NCBI GenBank assembly: GCA_964576525.1
Contig: CAZNVH010000041.1
Span: 7,326-71,325, forward strand
Origin: an uncultured Enterobacteriaceae bacterium
Lineage (GTDB): Bacteria > Pseudomonadota > Gammaproteobacteria > Burkholderiales > SG8-39
Reading direction: 5' to 3'
DNA length: 64,000 bases
The translations under genes were made by a program, and so were the position numbers. This document shows positions 2 through 62,720 of the stretch, piece after piece; the first letter of the stretch is position 1; every line of letters begins with the position of its first letter. The notes under the pieces were generated by a model. The model was not told the origin of the DNA. It did not search any database and worked only from the letters and a program-made list of their open reading frames with translations.

Positions 2-5039
<5,038 letters not shown>

Positions 5040-5043
5040 TTCC

Positions 5044-5913
5044 ATGCCCGCCAAGCTGAGAAAAGCCGTTTTCCCGGTTGCCGGCCTCGGCAGCCGCTTC
5101 CTGCCGGTGACCAAGGCGAGCCCCAAGGAGATGCTGCCGATCGTCGACAAGCCGCTGATCCAGTACGCGGTGGAGGAGGCGGCGGCGGCGGGGATCACCG
5201 AGATGATCTTCGTCACCGGGCGCAACAAGCGGGCGATCGAGGACCACTTCGACAAGGCCTACGAGCTCGAAACCGAGCTCGAGCGCAAGAACAAGGCCGA
5301 GCTGCTCGAGATGGTGCGCTCGGTGCTGCCGGAAGGCGCGCGCTGCATCTACCTCCGCCAGGCCGAGCCGCTCGGCCTGGGGCACGCCGTGCTGTGCGCG
5401 CAGCCGGTGGTCGGCAACGATCCTTTCGCTGTGGTGCTGGCCGACGACCTGATCGACGCGCAGCCGCCGGCGATGTGCCGCATGGCCGAGCTGTTCGCCA
5501 AGGAGGGCTGCTCGCTGCTCGGCGTCGAGGAGGTGCCGCGTGACCAGACCCAGAGCTACGGCATCGTCACCGTCGAGGCCATGCAATCCGACGCCGGGCG
5601 CCTGCGCAGCATCGTGGAGAAGCCCCGACCCGCCGATGCACCCTCGAACCTCGGCGTGATCGGCCGCTACGTGCTGACGCCACGCATCTTCGACCTGCTG
5701 GCACGGCAGTCGCCAGGCGCCGGCGGCGAGATCCAGCTCACCGACGCGATCTCGGCGCTGCTCACCCACGAACGGGTCCTCGCGGTGCGGCTGCCCGGCC
5801 GGCGCTACGACTGCGGCACCAAGCTCGGCTATCTGCAGGCGACGCTCGAGTACGGGCTGCGCCATCCCGAGACCGGCGAGGCGTTCGCGCGCTACCTGAA
5901 AGCACGCAAGTGA
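5044..5913 (+). CDS. galU: UTP-glucose-1-phosphate uridylyltransferase
   Basis: [31 protein letters not shown]; [12 protein letters not shown]. Confidence 0.96.
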
Positions 5914-42352: not shown

Positions 42353-42963
42353 GCGCGCGCGGCAAGTTCATCACCCTCGAAGGCGTCGACGGCGCCGGCA
42401 AGTCCACCCACCTGCAGTTCATCGCGGACTTCATCGGCGGCGGCGCCCGCCGCGTGATCGTGACGCGCGAGCCCGGCGGCACCGAGCTCGGCGAGCGGCT
42501 GCGCGAGGCGATCCTCGGCCAGCCGATGGCGCCGCTGGCGGAGACCCTGCTGATCTTCGCGGCGCGCGCCGAGCATGTCGCAAAGGTCATCGAGCCGGGG
42601 TTGCAGGCGGGAAGCTGGGTCGTATGCGACCGCTTCACGGACGCGACCTACGCCTACCAGGGGGCGGGGAAGGGCGTCTCGTTCGAGCTGATCGGGCGCC
42701 TGGGCGACGCCGCCCATCCAGGACTGCGCCCCGACCGCACCCTGCTGTTCGATTGCAGCTACGAAGTCTCCCGCCAGAGGCTGGCGGCGTCCGGCAAGGC
42801 GCTCGACCGTTTCGAGCGCGAGGGCCGCGAATTCTTCGAGCGCGTGCGAAACATCTATCGGGTCCGCGCCGAGGCCGATCCGGCACGCATTCGCGTGATC
42901 GACGCGGCGGCGGACCTGAAGACCATTCGCAAGGCGGTGGAGCAGGGGCTGGCGGGGCTGTGA
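42349..42963 (+). CDS. tmk: Thymidylate kinase
   Basis: FITLEGVDGAGKST, TREPGGT, CDRFTDATYAYQG. Confidence 0.96.
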   Translation: MSARGKFITLEGVDGAGKSTHLQFIADFIGGGARRVIVTREPGGTELGERLREAILGQPMAPLAETLLIFAARAEHVAKVIEPGLQAGSWVVCDRFTDATYAYQGAGKGVSFELIGRLGDAAHPGLRPDRTLLFDCSYEVSRQRLAASGKALDRFEREGREFFERVRNIYRVRAEADPARIRVIDAAADLKTIRKAVEQGLAGL

Positions 42964-43901
42964 TGCATCCCTGGAATCAGCCGATCCTCGACGGATTGCG
43001 CAAAGGCCTCGAGCGCCTGCCGCACGCGCTGCTGATCCATGGACCGCGCGGGGTCGGCAAGCTGGCGCTCGCCGAGCGCGCAGCACAGCTTTTTCTTTGT
43101 GAAGGAAAAGACAAGCCTTGCGGCTCCTGCGACGGCTGCAGGTGGTATCTCGGCGGCAACCACCCCGATTTCCGCCGGGTCGAGCCCGAGGCGCTGGCCG
43201 CGGCGCCGGCGGAAAGCGAGGAAGAGGCGCCCGCCCGCAAGACAAAGCAGCCGAGCACCGAAATCAAGATCGATCAAGTGCGGGGCCTGGCGGACTTCCT
43301 GAACGTAGGCTCGCACCGCGGGGGCAGGCGGGTGGTGCTGATCCATCCGGCGGAGCACATGAACATCCCGACCGCGAACGCGCTTCTCAAGGACCTCGAG
43401 GAACCGTCCGCCGGTGCGATGTTCATCGTGGTATCGCATCGCCCGGCCCTGCTGCTGCCGACGATCCGCAGCCGCTGCGTGGCTGTGCCGGTGCCAATCC
43501 CGCCGATGGCCACCGCGCTGGCGTGGCTGGCGGAGCAAAAGGTGGCTCAAGCCGAGCGCTGGCTTGCGTATGCCGGCGGAGCGCCGCTGCGGGCCCTGGA
43601 CTACGCCGCGGATTCCACCGCGCTCGAAGGGCTGCTGGCTTCCCCGAGGCCGGTGGACGACCGCGAAGGCATCGAACGCCTGGCGGAGGTCCTTCAGAAG
43701 ATCGCCCTGGACCGGGCCCTCCTGGCTTTCGGCCTACCCCCCAAGTACCGGACGGGCGGGGCGAAGGTCAGCCGGAAGGATGCACACCGTTGGCTGGTCT
43801 TTGCCCGTCAGATGGGCCAGCACCGCCGTCTGAGCCGCCATCCCTTGAATCCGAGGCTGTTTTCGGCCGAGATGCTGGCCGGGATGCCTGGGAAGGTCTA
43901 A
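42963..43901 (+). CDS. holB: DNA polymerase III delta prime
   Basis: PHALLIHGPRGVGK, CGSCDGC, ANALLK.LEEP, LLPTIRSRC; after tmk. Confidence 0.92.
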   Translation: MHPWNQPILDGLRKGLERLPHALLIHGPRGVGKLALAERAAQLFLCEGKDKPCGSCDGCRWYLGGNHPDFRRVEPEALAAAPAESEEEAPARKTKQPSTEIKIDQVRGLADFLNVGSHRGGRRVVLIHPAEHMNIPTANALLKDLEEPSAGAMFIVVSHRPALLLPTIRSRCVAVPVPIPPMATALAWLAEQKVAQAERWLAYAGGAPLRALDYAADSTALEGLLASPRPVDDREGIERLAEVLQKIALDRALLAFGLPPKYRTGGAKVSRKDAHRWLVFARQMGQHRRLSRHPLNPRLFSAEMLAGMPGKV

Positions 43902-43902
43902 T

Positions 43903-43930
43903 ACTTAACATAATACACATTGGGCAACAT
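43903..43930 (-). other. dif-like XerCD recombination site
   Basis: Minus strand ATGTTGCCCAA-TGTGTA-TTATGTTAAGT vs E. coli GGTGCGCATAA-TGTATA-TTATGTTAAAT (XerD arm 10/11, spacer 5/6); intergenic. Confidence 0.8.
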
Positions 43931-43989: not shown

Positions 43990-44442
43990 CTAGTTAAGCT
44001 TATCTGCAGGTGGGACAGGCAGACGCGCAACCGGAACGCCCTCATCCAACAGATCGTCGTGCTCCTGCTGGGTGGCCTGGCCGCGGATGGCGCGGGCCGG
44101 CGCCTGGTCATAGAAGATCTTGCGGGCTTCTGCGGGAAAGTCTTTGCCGACGTCCTCGCTCTTGGTGAGGAGCTCGTCGAGCATGCGCGAATACAGCATC
44201 TGGGCGATGGCGAACGGGTCCTTGCCTTCCATTTCCGGTGTCTTGGCGGGCTGGGCGGGCGCCTTGGGCTCTGTGGCGCCAAGGTTGACCCGGGCTGCCG
44301 AGGGCACGCGCTCTACCTTCGCCGCGCCGCAGCTCGGGCAGGAAAGCAGCTTGCGCTCCTTCTGCGAGGCGAAATCGGCGGCCGAGGCGAACCAGCCCTC
44401 GAAGCGGTGCCCTGAGCTGCAAAGCAGATCGAAAACAATCAT
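43990..44442 (-). CDS. DUF1178 family protein
   Basis: MIVFDLLC..GHRFEGWF.S, CPSCG, SEDVG..FPAEARKI. Confidence 0.88.
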   Translation of the reverse strand: MIVFDLLCSSGHRFEGWFASAADFASQKERKLLSCPSCGAAKVERVPSAARVNLGATEPKAPAQPAKTPEMEGKDPFAIAQMLYSRMLDELLTKSEDVGKDFPAEARKIFYDQAPARAIRGQATQQEHDDLLDEGVPVARLPVPPADKLN

Positions 44443-44465: not shown

Positions 44466-45770
44466 ATGAGGAGATACCGGGACGACCCGGGCGCGCTGCA
44501 GGCGCTGGTAGAAGCCGACCGGGTGCACCGCGACGTCTATATCGACGCGGAAGTCTTCCAGCTCGAGATGGAACGCCTGTGGGCGCGGACCTGGATCTAT
44601 GTCGGCCACGAAAGTCAGGTGCCGCAGCCCGGCGACTACATCACCGCCGACATCGCGGCGAAACCGGTGATCGTAGTGCGCCATACCGACGGCAAGGTGC
44701 GCGTGCTGATGAACCGCTGCGCCCACAAGGGCACCAAGGTCGTGGGAGACCTCGTGGGCAATACCGGCAAGACGTTCCGTTGCCCGTACCACGCGTGGAC
44801 TTACCGTACGGACGGTTCCCTCCTGCAGGTTCCGCTCAAGGGCGGTTATGAAGGAACCCGGGTCTACGAAACCGAGGCCGGTCGTGGCCTGGCGCGCGTC
44901 ACCCACGAGACCTATCGCGGGTTCGTGTTCGCCCGCCTCGCCCCCGGCCCGGGGTTCCGCGAGTACTTCGGCGATTCGCTCTCCTCCATCGACAACCTCG
45001 CCGATCGCTCGCCGGAGGGCGAGCTCGAGATCACCGGCGGCTGCCTGCGCTACCTGCACAACTGCAACTGGAAGATGTTCGTCGAGAACCTGAACGACAT
45101 GATGCACCCGATGATCGTGCACGCCTCCTCCGCCGGCACTGCGAAACGGCTGTGGGAAGGCCAGCCGGCGGACCGTCCCAAGCCGATGGCGGTCGAGCAG
45201 TACGCGCCCTTTGCCAACGACTACAAGTTCTTCGATGACATGGGGGTGCGCGTTTACCCGCACGGCCACGGCTTTTCCGGGGTGAATTTCTCGATCCATT
45301 CTTCGTACTCGGCGATCCCGGACTACGAGGAGGCGATGAAGCGCGCCTACGGCGCGGAGCGTGCGCAGCAGATCCTGGGCACGGTGCGCCACAACACCGT
45401 CTACTACCCCAGCCTCACCATCAAGGGCGCGATCCAGTCGATCCGGGTGGTGCGGCCGCTTGCCGCCGACAAGACGCTGATCGAGTCCTGGACTTTCCGC
45501 CTCAAGGGCGCGCCCGACAAGCTGCTCGAGCGCACGGTGATGTACAACCGGCTGATCAACTCACCCATGTCGGTGGTCGGCCACGACGACCTGCACTGCT
45601 ACCGCTCGGCGCAGGAAGGCCTCGCCGCCCCTGGGAATGAATGGGTGAGCCTTCACCGGAATTTTAATGAAAGTGAATTGAACGAAAAAGAACTCATCTG
45701 CAACGGCACCAGCGATATCTCCATGCGCAACCAGTTCCGCGCCTGGAGGGAATTCATGGCGGCCGGATGA
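44466..45770 (+). CDS. Rieske aromatic ring-hydroxylating oxygenase alpha subunit
   Basis: Rieske ligands CAH..CPYH; mononuclear Fe motif NLNDMMHPMIVH; distal Asp in GHDD. Confidence 0.92.
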   Translation: MRRYRDDPGALQALVEADRVHRDVYIDAEVFQLEMERLWARTWIYVGHESQVPQPGDYITADIAAKPVIVVRHTDGKVRVLMNRCAHKGTKVVGDLVGNTGKTFRCPYHAWTYRTDGSLLQVPLKGGYEGTRVYETEAGRGLARVTHETYRGFVFARLAPGPGFREYFGDSLSSIDNLADRSPEGELEITGGCLRYLHNCNWKMFVENLNDMMHPMIVHASSAGTAKRLWEGQPADRPKPMAVEQYAPFANDYKFFDDMGVRVYPHGHGFSGVNFSIHSSYSAIPDYEEAMKRAYGAERAQQILGTVRHNTVYYPSLTIKGAIQSIRVVRPLAADKTLIESWTFRLKGAPDKLLERTVMYNRLINSPMSVVGHDDLHCYRSAQEGLAAPGNEWVSLHRNFNESELNEKELICNGTSDISMRNQFRAWREFMAAG

Positions 45771-46240
45771 GCGAAGCGGACCTGATTCGCTTCGTCCTGC
45801 GCGAGGCGCGCCTGATCGACGAGAAGCGCTTCGACGAGTGGTACGAGCTGTTCGCCGACGACGCCTATTACTGGGTTCCGATCGCTCCCGGGCAGAGCGA
45901 TCCGCTGGGCCACAACTCGCTCGCCTACGAGGACAAGTTCCTGCTCAAGCTGCGCATCGAGCGGCTGAAGCAGCCGAACGCCTTTTCGCAGAAACCGGCG
46001 AGCCGCTGCCAGCACCTGCTGCAGACCCCGGAGCTGGAGAAGTCCGACGCGGCGCGCGGCGAGTACCTGATGCGCACGCCGTTCATCTATACCGAGACCC
46101 GCGGCGACGATTCGCAGCGCTATGCCGCAACCGCCTGGCACACGTTGGTTACTTCAGACGCCGGGCTGCGCATCCGCCTGAAGCGCGTGGACCTGCTGAA
46201 CTGCGACGCCGCCCTGCCCTCGATCCAGCTTTTCCTGTGA
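45767..46240 (+). CDS. Ring-hydroxylating oxygenase beta subunit
   Basis: EARLIDE.RFDEW, YYWVP, KRVDLLN; ATGA overlap with alpha. Confidence 0.9.
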   Translation: MSEADLIRFVLREARLIDEKRFDEWYELFADDAYYWVPIAPGQSDPLGHNSLAYEDKFLLKLRIERLKQPNAFSQKPASRCQHLLQTPELEKSDAARGEYLMRTPFIYTETRGDDSQRYAATAWHTLVTSDAGLRIRLKRVDLLNCDAALPSIQLFL

Positions 46241-57170: not shown

Positions 57171-58966
<1,796 letters not shown>

Positions 58967-58975
58967 ATAAAGCAA

Positions 58976-58997
58976 GAGGGTGCCACATGGCACCCTC
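58976..58997 (-). promoter_or_regulatory. Strong hairpin in lepA 5' leader
   Basis: GAGGGTGCC-A(TG)T-GGCACCCTC, 9 nt before lepA ATG; TAAAAT -10 at 59015-59010. Confidence 0.55.
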
Positions 58998-59099
58998 CTC
59001 TAACCTGCTATTTTACCGTAGGAATTACCGCTAATGACTATAAACGTCGGCTAAGCCTTCAGCTTTCATATTGACTGTCCGGACGGTATCGCCGTCACA

Positions 59100-59759
59100 T
59101 TAGAGCCCTTTGGATCGGTTCGTTCGCCATTCACTCCGACAGTCCTCATGATTTGAGAATGCGTATTGGAAAAGTAGTGCTCCCATCGCTCCTTTGCCGA
59201 GATCAGACACACCTACGGAAAGCCGAACCGTGCGCAGCTTGTCCGGCAACCGATGTCGATGTTCCTCTACCCACATCGCAACAAGCCTTCCATTCTGTTC
59301 CATGACCGCCCTGTACCATTCTTTCGGAGGTATGGGCTGTCGCACATCTCTATTCGGTTCAAACCCGATCTGCGGTTTGCCATATTTCTGCGAAAGGACT
59401 CGTACGGTTTCCTCAAATTCATGCTCGATGGAAGACGCAAAGAACAGCTTTCCTTCTGCGAGGATAAAGCAGAGCCCGGATTCCTTCGAAAAGAAGAGTG
59501 TTAGCGATTGAATACTCTCGTTGATGATCGGCGGTTGTTGGACCGTCAACGCGTCCTTACTGTCGCGGACACCCTTAGAGATCTTTTTCGCCGCCTCCCG
59601 AGTCATCCCCTGGTCGTATCCGAACGGTCCTGCCACTGATATCGCGGAGTACCCAAGCAAAGCAGTTGTAGCCACGGTCACGAATACATGAATGAGTAAA
59701 CGATGCTCTTTGGGGGGCGGCCCGACGCGCTGCTTACGCAGCTTCCCTCTCAGTTTCAC
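59100..59759 (-). CDS. Hypothetical exported protein (low-GC island)
   Basis: GTG overlaps upstream TGA; hydrophobic signal-like stretch ending SVA-GPFG; 219 aa. Confidence 0.6.
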   Translation of the reverse strand: MKLRGKLRKQRVGPPPKEHRLLIHVFVTVATTALLGYSAISVAGPFGYDQGMTREAAKKISKGVRDSKDALTVQQPPIINESIQSLTLFFSKESGLCFILAEGKLFFASSIEHEFEETVRVLSQKYGKPQIGFEPNRDVRQPIPPKEWYRAVMEQNGRLVAMWVEEHRHRLPDKLRTVRLSVGVSDLGKGAMGALLFQYAFSNHEDCRSEWRTNRSKGL

Positions 59760-59959
59760 TTGTGCTTCCAGTAATTGATTGTGTAAGCCAGCGTAGTGGC
59801 CGCTACGGAAGCCAGCATGATTACTGAGACAGCCACCGAGAACCAATACAGCGTGGATAGCCCAAAGTGCTCCGCAGCACCCAAGAAACCCAACCCGACG
59901 ACTAAACCCCACAGGTTCTGATTCAGATGGATCTTGAAGTGCTCGTCAAGGCTTGCCAT
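59756..59959 (-). CDS. Small two-TM hypothetical protein (67 aa)
   Basis: AGGAG SD before ATG; two hydrophobic segments. Confidence 0.6.
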   Translation of the reverse strand: MASLDEHFKIHLNQNLWGLVVGLGFLGAAEHFGLSTLYWFSVAVSVIMLASVAATTLAYTINYWKHK

Positions 59960-60038
59960 TTCGACTCCTAAACGGATGCATAACTAAACACGTGTCGGAC
60001 CATTGTTGTTCTGCTGATTGTCGACGCCGGTAGTGGCG

Positions 60039-60611
60039 TTACGTGATGTACTCCATGTCGTACTGAAGCTTCTTCCCACGACAACGTGGACAGAACAACG
60101 CTCGGCTCCTTGTGAGCGTTCCTCCGCATTTGCAGCCCCCGGCCACCACATCGGGTGACGAATTCGCGAGCGCGATAAACGTCCCGCAAGATTCGCACTG
60201 ATATCCAGTGGTACTCGTTTCGCCGTGAACAAAGGAGACGATTTCAGCAGAGTAGCCACATTCCAAGCAGGAAATTGTCCCGGCACCTCCTATGAATTGA
60301 AAGAAGACCTCCGATCGTCTCGCGTCTTCGCCGTCTGTACTGCTACGCCGTGTTCGGAGTTCTTCTCGTACTGCCCCCGGGAGAAAAATCGGCCAAAGCA
60401 AAATAACCCCTAGCGATAGCAACGTTCCGAACAACAGGAGTCTTGATTTTGAAAGTGCCGGACGGCCGTAATAGGCGTTTAGGAGATTCAATCCACGAGC
60501 ATCCGCCGCCGCTTCGGACACTTTCCTACGAAGTGGCCCTGCAGCAAGCAAAGCCAGCCCCACGAGAACATAGAGTGCTAGGCCAGCCAATAGTGCCCCG
60601 CCGATATACAT
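60039..60611 (-). CDS. Hypothetical membrane protein with Cys-rich double zinc-ribbon C-terminus
   Basis: Two TM helices, then CLEC, CESC, CKC, CPRC. Confidence 0.65.
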   Translation of the reverse strand: MYIGGALLAGLALYVLVGLALLAAGPLRRKVSEAAADARGLNLLNAYYGRPALSKSRLLLFGTLLSLGVILLWPIFLPGAVREELRTRRSSTDGEDARRSEVFFQFIGGAGTISCLECGYSAEIVSFVHGETSTTGYQCESCGTFIALANSSPDVVAGGCKCGGTLTRSRALFCPRCRGKKLQYDMEYIT

Positions 60612-61028
60612 TCAATGCATGCTTTGCGGCGTTAGATCAAGACTTAGTAGCGCTCTCGCATTTCTCGAACGAAGCACACGAGCCCCTACTCATGGAGTTT
60701 CGCCTAGTCGAAAAGTTTGCTTCGACGTCCTAGCTCAAACTTTCCACCGCTTGCCGCAGGGAATCCTACGCCGGTTGCCTCATAGACCTTACTGATTAAG
60801 TTTCGAAGCTGCTTTCTGGCAAATTCCTCTGCCAACTGAGGTGCTAACACCGACGCATTGTGCTCAACTTCAAAAGAAGCGGCTGTTGATTTGGCGGCGA
60901 ACTGAATAGCCAAAGATGCAATAGCATGCTCCCGCCTACTGCACCTGCTCTTCCGGCCCATTAACTTCCCCCGAACTTGTTGGAGTTTTGGTATTAAAGC
61001 AACCGGAGTGTTTGACCGCGAGGCGTTT

Positions 61029-61068
61029 AAAAAAGTTGCACCCGTAGTCTTCTAAGAAAAGGTGCGAC
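61029..61068 (-). terminator. Terminator-like hairpin after glutaredoxin gene
   Basis: GTCGCACC..GGTGCAAC (7/8 bp) then TTTTTT on minus strand; long 18-nt loop. Confidence 0.35.
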
Positions 61069-61069
61069 G

Positions 61070-61300
61070 TTAGCCAATTCCCGTCGCAATCTTTAACGCT
61101 GATTTGTCGAGATGATAGTGGCAAATCTCGTTCCCTTGCGCGTCGACAAGGACTGGAACCAGATGTCCATATTCTTTCTTAAGCGCAAGATCCGAATCGA
61201 CGTCGATCTCCTCGAAATCGACCCCGAGCGAGCGCAGCGCCTGCGCCATCTCCTCGCAGAGGTGGCAGCGGCTGCGCCCGTACAGCTTAACCTTTGTCAG
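61070..61300 (-). CDS. Glutaredoxin-like protein (DUF836 type), absent from ORF track; CTG start
   Basis: Manual translation LTKVKLYGRSRCHLCEEMAQAL..EEIDVDSD..YGHLVPVL..EICHYHLD; usual neighbour of mucD. Confidence 0.85.
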   Translation of the reverse strand: MTKVKLYGRSRCHLCEEMAQALRSLGVDFEEIDVDSDLALKKEYGHLVPVLVDAQGNEICHYHLDKSALKIATGIG

Positions 61301-62720
61301 TCAAGCCCGAGATCGTGACGAAGGCGATGTTCTCGCCGCGGCGCACCTGCAGGGTGATCACCGAACTCTTGTCGAGCGCCGCGAGCATCCGGTTGAACTG
61401 CTCGACCGACTTGAGCTCGGTGTGCTGCCCCTTTTGCACCACGGTGAGCAGCACGTCGCCCTTGCGCAGGTCGACCGCCTTGGAGTCGGGGCGCACGTCG
61501 GTGACCACCAGGCCGTAGGTCAGGTTCAGGCCGCGCCGCTGCTCGGCCGACAGCTCGGTCACCACCAGGCCGAGACGGTTCGCCGCGACCTCGGCCGGCG
61601 GCTTGGACTTGCCGGGGGTGTCGCGCGCCGCCACCCGGTCCTCCTGGAGCTCGCCGACCGTGATGCTGAGGCGCCGCGTCTGCCCCTTGCGCCAGACCTC
61701 GACGGACGACGTCGCTCCAGGCCGGGTCGAGCCGACGATGCGCGGCAGGTCGCTCGAGCTGTCGACGGTCTTGCCGTCGAAGCTGACGATGATGTCGGTC
61801 GCCTCGACGCCCGCCTTGTCGGCCGGGCTGCCCTTCTCCACCGAGTTGACCAGCGCGCCGCGCGGCCGGTCCAGGCCGAAGGAGGTGGCGAGGTCGCGCG
61901 ACACCTCCTGGATCACCACGCCGATGCGGCCGCGCGCCACGCGGCCCTTGTCGCGCAGCTGCCTCTGGATGTCGAGCGCCACGTCGATCGGGATCGCGAA
62001 CGACAGCCCCATGAAGCCGCCGGTGCGGCTGTAGATCTGCGAGTTGATGCCGACCACCTCGCCGCGCATGTTGAACAGCGGCCCGCCCGAGTTGCCGGGG
62101 TTGATGGCGACGTCGGTCTGGATGAACGGGACGAAGTTCTCCTGCGGCAGCGAGCGCCCCTTGGCGCTGACGATGCCGGCGGTCACGGTATTCTCGAAGC
62201 CGAACGGCGAGCCGATCGCCAGCACCCACTCGCCCACCTTGAGCTTGGCCGGGTCGCCGAAGCGCACCGCCGGCAGCCCGGTGGCGTCGACCTTGATCAC
62301 GGCGATGTCGGTGCGCCGGTCGGCGCCGATCACCTTGGCCTTGAACTCGCGCTTGTCGGTGAAGCGCACGGTGATCTCGTCGGCGCCCTCGACCACGTGG
62401 GCGTTGGTCAGGATGTAGCCGTCGGCGCTGATGATGAAGCCCGAACCGAGCGAGCGGCTCTCCGACCTCGGCGAGGGCCCGGGCTGCTGGCGCGGGATGA
62501 AGCGGCGGAAGAACTCGCGCACCTCCTCGTCCTCGATCCCCGGCACCTGCGGCGCGGCGCCGCTGCGGCGCACCGCCTGCGTGGTGCTGATGTTCACCAC
62601 CGCGCCGCCCTGCTCCTCGACCAGGCGGGTGAAGTCCGGCAGCTCGCGCCCCTGCGCGATAGCGCCCGCGCAGACAGCGGTCAAGCACAGAACTCCCACG
62701 AATCTCATTACGGCATGCAT
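61287..62720 (-). CDS. mucD: DegP/MucD HtrA serine protease
   Basis: Signal peptide, GSGFII, TNAHVV, DIAVIK, GNSGGPL, two PDZ domains. Confidence 0.94.
   Translation of the reverse strand: MHAVMRFVGVLCLTAVCAGAIAQGRELPDFTRLVEEQGGAVVNISTTQAVRRSGAAPQVPGIEDEEVREFFRRFIPRQQPGPSPRSESRSLGSGFIISADGYILTNAHVVEGADEITVRFTDKREFKAKVIGADRRTDIAVIKVDATGLPAVRFGDPAKLKVGEWVLAIGSPFGFENTVTAGIVSAKGRSLPQENFVPFIQTDVAINPGNSGGPLFNMRGEVVGINSQIYSRTGGFMGLSFAIPIDVALDIQRQLRDKGRVARGRIGVVIQEVSRDLATSFGLDRPRGALVNSVEKGSPADKAGVEATDIIVSFDGKTVDSSSDLPRIVGSTRPGATSSVEVWRKGQTRRLSITVGELQEDRVAARDTPGKSKPPAEVAANRLGLVVTELSAEQRRGLNLTYGLVVTDVRPDSKAVDLRKGDVLLTVVQKGQHTELKSVEQFNRMLAALDKSSVITLQVRRGENIAFVTISGLTDKG

Follow-up and report, generated by a model that had tools for sequence, protein, structure and literature searches.

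The gap between holB and the next gene in an uncultured betaproteobacterial genome holds a 28-bp sequence that resembles the recombination site dif in its XerD-binding half and departs from it in its XerC-binding half. This raises two questions: whether the sequence is the chromosomal dif of the organism, and what its unusual XerC arm says about the way XerC recognizes DNA. We examined the site in a 64,000-nucleotide stretch, here called the window, which corresponds to positions 7326-71325 of contig C41 of a draft genome (G000; 99 contigs, 3.36 Mb, 67.6% G+C, 97% complete). The closest named genomes are uncultured Burkholderiales/Betaproteobacteria MAGs, for example RIFCSPLOWO2_12_FULL_68_19.

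The dif-like site and its position at the terminus

The plus strand at 43903-43930 reads ACTTAACATAATACACATTGGGCAACAT, and its reverse complement gives the minus-strand 28-mer ATGTTGCCCAA TGTGTA TTATGTTAAGT. This has the 11-6-11 architecture of an XerCD-dif site with a recognizable XerD arm. The XerD-binding arm TTATGTTAAGT (dif positions 18-28; 43903..43913, minus strand) matches the E. coli/Burkholderiales consensus TTATGTTAAAT at 10/11 positions, and the 6-bp central region of strand exchange, TGTGTA (43914..43919, minus strand), is the commonest centre in the genus. In the XerC-binding arm ATGTTGCCCAA (43920..43930, minus strand) only the inner CAA (43920-43922) is conserved across the genus, and the outer 8 nt (43923..43930, minus strand) are essentially unconstrained. 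E. coli dif is GGTGCGCATAA TGTATA TTATGTTAAAT. Compared with it, the 28-mer showed nine mismatches in total, agreeing at 10/11 positions in the XerD arm and 5/6 in the centre but at only 4/11 in the XerC arm. An initial annotation of this DNA had described a 28-bp site in an AT-rich spacer one base after the holB stop, with an XerD arm and spacer near those of E. coli and an XerC arm whose inner bases are CCAA instead of the usually conserved ATAA; each of these descriptions was confirmed, with the site on the minus strand.

The site lies inside an 88-nt AT-rich gap between convergent genes. On the XerD-arm side is holB (DNA polymerase III delta'; 42960..43901, plus strand, start approximate), the last gene of mltG-tmk-holB, whose TAA stop codon (43899-43901) is separated from dif by a single base (43902). 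On the XerC-arm side a conserved 150-aa ORF, orf150 (43990..44442, minus strand), faces dif at a distance of 59 nt. The 28-mer is intergenic, with 32% G+C compared to 67.6% for the genome. The holB product matched profile TIGR00678 at 194 bits, above the cut-off, and NF004310 at 200.7 bits, under its 280-bit cut-off; the family matches began at about residue 113 of the 425-aa ORF 42624-43901. A weak zinc-ribbon match was seen for orf150 (TIGR02605, E = 3.4e-4, below the cut-off). Elsewhere in the window, G+C fell to 0.585-0.59 at 58001-62000 compared to about 0.68 in the remainder, and this stretch, some 15 kb away from dif, is possibly an island gained by horizontal transfer.

The XerD-arm 11-mer occurred once in the window with at most one mismatch, where 0.01 occurrences were expected by chance. 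In the whole 3.36-Mb draft the 20-nt core CAATGTGTATTATGTTAAAT had one match, with one mismatch, and the next best had six. One further dif-like candidate, at C27:173 on a 2.3-kb contig, had a partial XerD arm and 6/20 core mismatches; it was rejected as fitting chance. As a rough estimate rather than a computed value, tens of 11-mers with two mismatches are expected.

The genome being a draft, skew and polar motifs were assessed on the single 138-kb contig. G-C skew on C41 (137.8 kb) was positive to the left of dif and negative to the right, and the cumulative G-C count of the contig peaked some 700 bp away from dif, at window position 44621. The octamer GGGNAGGG, the FtsK-orienting motif of E. 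coli, which we take to be the KOPS of this organism as well, showed a matching polarity: 8 plus-strand and 1 minus-strand copies left of dif and 2 plus-strand and 14 minus-strand copies right of it (Fisher p = 3.4e-4), so that 22 octamers pointed toward dif and 3 away. The direction flipped between 42667 and 46219, the last rightward octamer toward dif being at 42667..42674 (plus strand) and the first leftward one at 46212..46219 (minus strand). When octamers on C41 were screened for polarity without bias, most of those returned were codon- or strand-related words and none was clearer than GGGNAGGG, 138 kb being too short for such a search.

The cognate proteins are encoded on other contigs of the draft. 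XerD (C3:6318-7145; 357.8 bits) and XerC (C61:20378-21232; 337.7 bits) both scored above the NCBIfam equivalog cut-off, and the FtsK gamma domain was found at C15:163933-164115 (100 bits). The catalytic set R...K...HxxR...H...Y was intact in both recombinases, and XerD kept a TRQ motif at the corresponding recognition position. XerC was a single-copy orthologue in 67/71 genomes of the genus, at 66-85% identity. Its single copy, its intact catalytic residues and its score above the equivalog cut-off indicate continued selection for function. The genome also carries further tyrosine-recombinase genes or fragments at C19:4966-5758, C60:16652-17518 and C99:32809-33685, the last with two in-frame TGA codons; these are probably integrases of mobile elements.

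Conservation of the locus in the genus

The genomes of the genus were searched with the 20-nt core, allowing up to 3 mismatches. The core CAA TGTGTA TTATGTTAAAT was present in 47/71 genomes, exactly once in 45 of them and twice in two, while a reversed-pattern control gave 0 matches in any genus genome. No match to the core was found in the other 24/71; most of these are incomplete, yet 8 of the 29 high-quality genomes are among them. In the 48 distinct sites recovered, the XerD arm was invariant or nearly so and the central TGTGTA was seen in 38; conservation of dif positions 9-28 is partly built into this result because the search pattern required those positions. The flanking DNA of the sites has diverged to randomness around the invariant core.

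Gene order was also maintained. The arrangement mltG-tmk-holB-dif-orf150 is syntenic across the genus: holB flanked the XerD arm in all loci that extended to that side, and orf150 orthologues (68-82% identical) lay on the XerC-arm side in most loci that were long enough. Nearly every sufficiently long locus placed dif between holB and an orf150 orthologue, the exception being a second copy in one genome (G062, locus L166). This synteny indicates that dif is old and fixed in the gap, and is not an insertion junction.

Three observations concern the neighborhood of dif in relatives. The holB frame enters dif in 16 of 47 distinct genus relatives (L125, L127, L128, L131, L133, L142, L143, L148-L151, L153-L155, L161 and L177, all with dif near position 1501). 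In 15 of these 16, holB stops at a TAA within the XerD arm, ending ...(D/H)-L-T-stop (nAT TTA ACA TAA), so that the whole XerD arm is also coding, which contradicts the usual statement that dif is non-coding. One genome (G068) has two contigs, L153 and L154, with near-identical holB-dif-orf150 regions whose arms, GGCAAACACAA and GGCCAACACAA, are 1 nt apart; these probably reflect strain heterogeneity within the MAG and not two dif sites. In a genome from another Burkholderiales family (G030, locus L027), dif is at 3039 and holB at 4549-5508 in reverse, with tmk-holB within 1.5-3 kb of dif, inverted and on the XerC-arm side. Linkage between holB and the terminus may predate the genus and may have involved an inversion around dif.

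The initial annotation had proposed a chromosomal dif and had named skew, uniqueness and conservation as checks. All three came out in its favor: the skew maximum lies close to the site, the draft holds one core match, and the locus is syntenic in the 47 genomes of the genus that have the core. The site is thus single-copy, lies at the skew shift and at the convergence of KOPS, and is accompanied by cognate XerC, XerD and FtsK gamma. The XerC arm ATGTTGCCCAA is off the canonical proteobacterial consensus (C)GCATAA, and the site is therefore classed as dif by function and position and not by consensus match. On this sequence evidence we consider the 28-mer very probably (probability about 0.88) the functional single chromosomal dif of this uncultured betaproteobacterium from soil or sediment, the place where XerC and XerD would resolve chromosome dimers at the replication terminus with FtsK in control. 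Its annotation places the replication terminus of an uncultured lineage, which aids replichore orientation and assembly checks.

The XerC arm and its recombinase

Over the 48 distinct sites of the genus only the CAA at positions 9-11 of the XerC arm was fixed. Positions 1-8 carried between -0.04 and 0.74 bits each, about 2.4 bits in total; in other Burkholderiales lineages, 22 canonical sites gave 7.0 bits. In the genus, positions 5-8 carried 0.06, 0.34, 0.28 and 0.74 bits (about 1.4 bits summed); in the 22 other sites they carried 1.90, 1.63, 0.96 and 0.94 bits (about 5.4 bits summed) and read CG[C/T]A before TAA. A family-level control around G030 showed that the arm varies to some extent there too, with CGCC, CATA and CGTA at positions 5-8; with only 6 genomes that family is unfit as a within-genus control.

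Close pairs of species showed how fast the arm changes. In five pairs with alignable left flanks, a small sample of non-independent pairs, divergence per site was 0.31 for the flank and 0.20 for the outer arm, and the core showed 0/100 changes. The outer arm was mildly A-rich (37% A compared to 20% in the flank), and given this residual bias of about 2.4 bits some shape preference or weak sequence preference may remain. The XerC arm has been described as the less conserved of the two, with variation concentrated at its outer ends (PMC2731167; PMC3025954). The new element is that variation spans positions 1-8, together with T9->C, and extends over a genus of 71 species. The divergent XerC arm of the initial annotation was real and extends through the genus, whereas CCAA itself is only the version found in the G000 species; since the outer 8 nt drift and nothing but CAA stays fixed, the arm appears relaxed rather than merely different.

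Two relatives carry arms of other forms. In G019 (loci L014/L126) the centre-adjacent arm is GGGTAACAGTC, preceded by ATGTTACCCCAA, and GTTACCC-CAA-GGGTAAC is palindromic, its two 7-bp halves matching perfectly; the normal ...CCAA arm seems to have been pushed away from the centre by an 11-nt insertion. A more distant relative, G091 (locus L178), has the dif ATTGTCGCATA TGTGTA TTATGTCAAAT, the arm of which looks like canonical TCGCATAA minus one A.

To compare the recombinase, 80 Burkholderiales XerC sequences were aligned, and G000 with its six closest relatives was set against the 73 others. Five positions distinguished the clade: D35 (frequency 0.88 in the others) is A, S72 (0.96) is T, R75 (0.93) is L or Y, R219 (0.89) is T, S, A or G, and G256 (0.86) is Q. 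Among 30 orthologues from the genus, A35, L75 and Q256 were each present in 30/30 and position 219 was S, T, A or G in 28, while position 72 was T in 19 and S in 11. The substitutions followed the arm: D-S-R...R219 was found in 12/12 canonical-arm genomes with scorable XerC, and A-T-L/Y...S219 in 3/3 non-canonical-arm genomes scored (two with an nCAA arm and the intermediate G091), a correlation that amounts to a single evolutionary event in one clade. The G091 XerC (L048) is 62% identical and has A35, T72, Y75 and S219, but G256. This genome may represent the step toward the relaxed arm.

In an AlphaFold model built for XerC of the closest relative (mean pLDDT 86.9), residue 35 falls within N-terminal helix 2 and residues 72 and 75 within helix 4; residue 219 belongs to the opening turn of helix 217-230 (pLDDT about 96), which directly precedes the HxxR helix. 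By helix order, residues 35, 75 and 219 would match the Cre DNA-contact helices B, D and J, an assignment made through helix correspondence and not from a superposed complex. In Cre, R259 of helix J makes a key bidentate guanine contact (PMC7438526). On our own reading of the sequences, STRALEG of Cre appears to resemble SPRAVQ of canonical XerC. A fold search returned the generic Xer/tyrosine-recombinase fold only, without residue-level contacts. The global pairwise alignment of XerC and XerD from G000 was unreliable near the recognition helix, and a phmmer alignment to 1A0P was used instead. The suggestion in the initial annotation of a divergent XerC, to be sought among its contact residues, agrees with these results, since D35, R75 and R219 have been lost in helices likely to contact DNA.

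Proposed relaxed recognition and its alternatives

Taken together, these data suggest that recognition of the XerC arm has probably been relaxed in this genus, and not re-specified species by species, although we hold this with less assurance than the identity of the site. Under re-specification, the recognition helix of each species (XerC residues 219-223) would have co-evolved with its own arm, and the outer arm would still be read. Helix positions 219-223 are indeed hypervariable in the genus and vary there as the arm does; close species resemble each other in both helix and arm, for instance RIAPTVVNSRLR with AA(C/T)GCATGCAA; and position 259 of Cre accepts many residues that make different specific contacts (PMC7438526). 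Against this, three species (G068, G049 and G066) have the identical helix RISPSRVWQRLT with the arms GGCAAACACAA, TAAACATACAA and AAGCAATACAA, which disagree with one another at 5-6 of the eight outer positions. The outer arm also diverges near the flank rate in close pairs, and the losses R75L and D35A are fixed where re-specification would have them vary. The S, T, A and G replacements at 219 are small and ill-suited to base reading, and XerH offers a precedent for reading of the inner bases. The shared helix with different arms, the near-neutral drift of the outer arm and the small replacement residues with the XerH precedent favor the relaxed reading, and we regard re-specification as unlikely.

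Relaxed recognition could operate as follows. XerD would bind the conserved arm TTATGTTAAGT and anchor the complex, and FtsK, steered by converging GGGNAGGG motifs, would use its gamma domain to activate XerD, which would then perform the first strand exchange. XerC would be recruited to the left arm mainly through cooperativity with XerD, would read little beyond the CAA next to the cleavage point, and would then resolve the Holliday junction. The outer 8 nt of the XerC arm would be free of sequence constraint, and the conserved XerC residues lost in the genus (D35A, R75L and R219 to S, T, A or G) would correspond to this release. Carried to its end, this scheme would make the XerC of the clade an almost sequence-independent partner, placed by XerD and CAA, and would reduce dif to an XerD half-site plus CAA; we put forward this stronger form tentatively, as a possibility short of even odds. 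If true, it would be a naturally occurring step between Xer systems with two recombinases and those with a single specificity, and the XerC-arm barrier that normally limits which mobile elements use dif would be gone.

The site could alternatively be a hybrid junction (attL or attR) left by an integrated element that exploits Xer (IMEX), with the odd XerC arm derived from the element and the true dif elsewhere. When an IMEX integrates, the resulting site pairs an XerC arm from the element with the XerD arm of the chromosome, and one relative, G062, does have two dif-like sites. In G000, there is one dif-like site, it lies at the skew peak and the KOPS switch, and on both sides, at holB and at orf150, synteny extends to dozens of relatives. 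An attachment junction was rejected for G000, given the lack of a second site, the housekeeping flanks and the absence of an inserted element, and this explanation is very improbable. The two G062 sites, at L166 (1553) and L147 (107), share 14/15 nt beyond the XerD arm. The L166 site is followed by small ORFs and then a ParB-like N-terminal domain (ORF 2635-3099, plus strand), while the L147 site adjoins orf150, and we consider G062 a candidate for an integrated element of this kind.

XerC might also have fallen out of use, with XerD alone, or another tyrosine recombinase, working both arms in the manner of single-recombinase systems. The left arm is without XerC consensus beyond CAA, and other tyrosine-recombinase fragments are available on C19, C60 and C99. 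The left arm is no copy of the XerD arm, however, and an XerC that scores above its equivalog cut-off with catalytic residues intact, conserved as a single-copy gene in 67/71 genomes, makes disuse slightly less probable still than an IMEX junction. A chance AT-rich match or a regulatory element can be dismissed as the least probable explanation of all: terminators are expected in a gap between convergent genes, but Rfam, promoter, terminator and inverted-repeat scans of the holB/orf150 gap found nothing at the site, the XerD-arm match was expected only 0.01 times by chance, and the 20-nt core is invariant in a genus where the flanks have diverged to randomness.

With relaxed recognition as the preferred reading, the locus offers a natural case, spread over many species, in which the XerC arm has apparently been released while XerC stays conserved and catalytically intact, and in which that release coincides with the loss of specific conserved XerC residues. 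It would let one ask what amount of sequence XerC must read when targeting is done by XerD and FtsK, and through which of its residues XerC recognizes the canonical CGCATAA. As a dif the site is ordinary; a genus-wide relaxed XerC arm with matching XerC losses, as judged from sequence comparison, would be a modest novelty.

Comparison with known Xer systems

The system resembles E. coli dif/XerCD/FtsK, with which it shares the 11-6-11 layout, a single copy at the skew shift, converging GGGNAGGG motifs, and XerC, XerD and FtsK gamma. It differs in the inner XerC arm, which is CCAA in G000 and ATAA in E. coli. The recombinases differ as well: E. coli XerC carries the motif 'SARNVQKR', and the XerC of this clade is without the Arg corresponding to the R of that motif. 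Canonical betaproteobacterial dif sites, such as AATTCGCATAATGTATATTATGTAAAGT of Bordetella pertussis (Carnoy & Roten 2009, PMC2731167), provide a further comparison. Like the 22 Burkholderiales sites, the G000 site has the same or nearly the same XerD arm and centre, low G+C, and an intergenic position near the terminus. Unlike the G000 genus, where only CAA is kept, with T9->C, other Burkholderiales families keep CG[C/T]ATAA at positions 5-11 even between families.

Sites used by IMEX (CTX-phi, TLC-phi and the gonococcal island) and the plasmid sites cer and psi likewise have one degenerate arm and rely on a well-bound partner. In those sites the degenerate arm is usually that of XerD and the site is on a mobile element, whereas here it is the XerC arm of a chromosomal dif that is degenerate, and the condition is stable across a genus. 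The single-recombinase class (XerS/difSL and XerH/difH), whose one Xer recombinase usually goes with a linked site of non-classical type, does not accommodate the site, since XerC and XerD are both present, on other contigs. In Helicobacter XerH/difH the inner arm bases are read specifically and the outer bases are mostly in backbone contact (Bebel et al. 2016, PMC5241119), which provides the precedent for reading of inner bases only. Unlike XerH/difH, in which a single recombinase acts on its own site, G000 has both XerC and XerD and a classical XerD arm.
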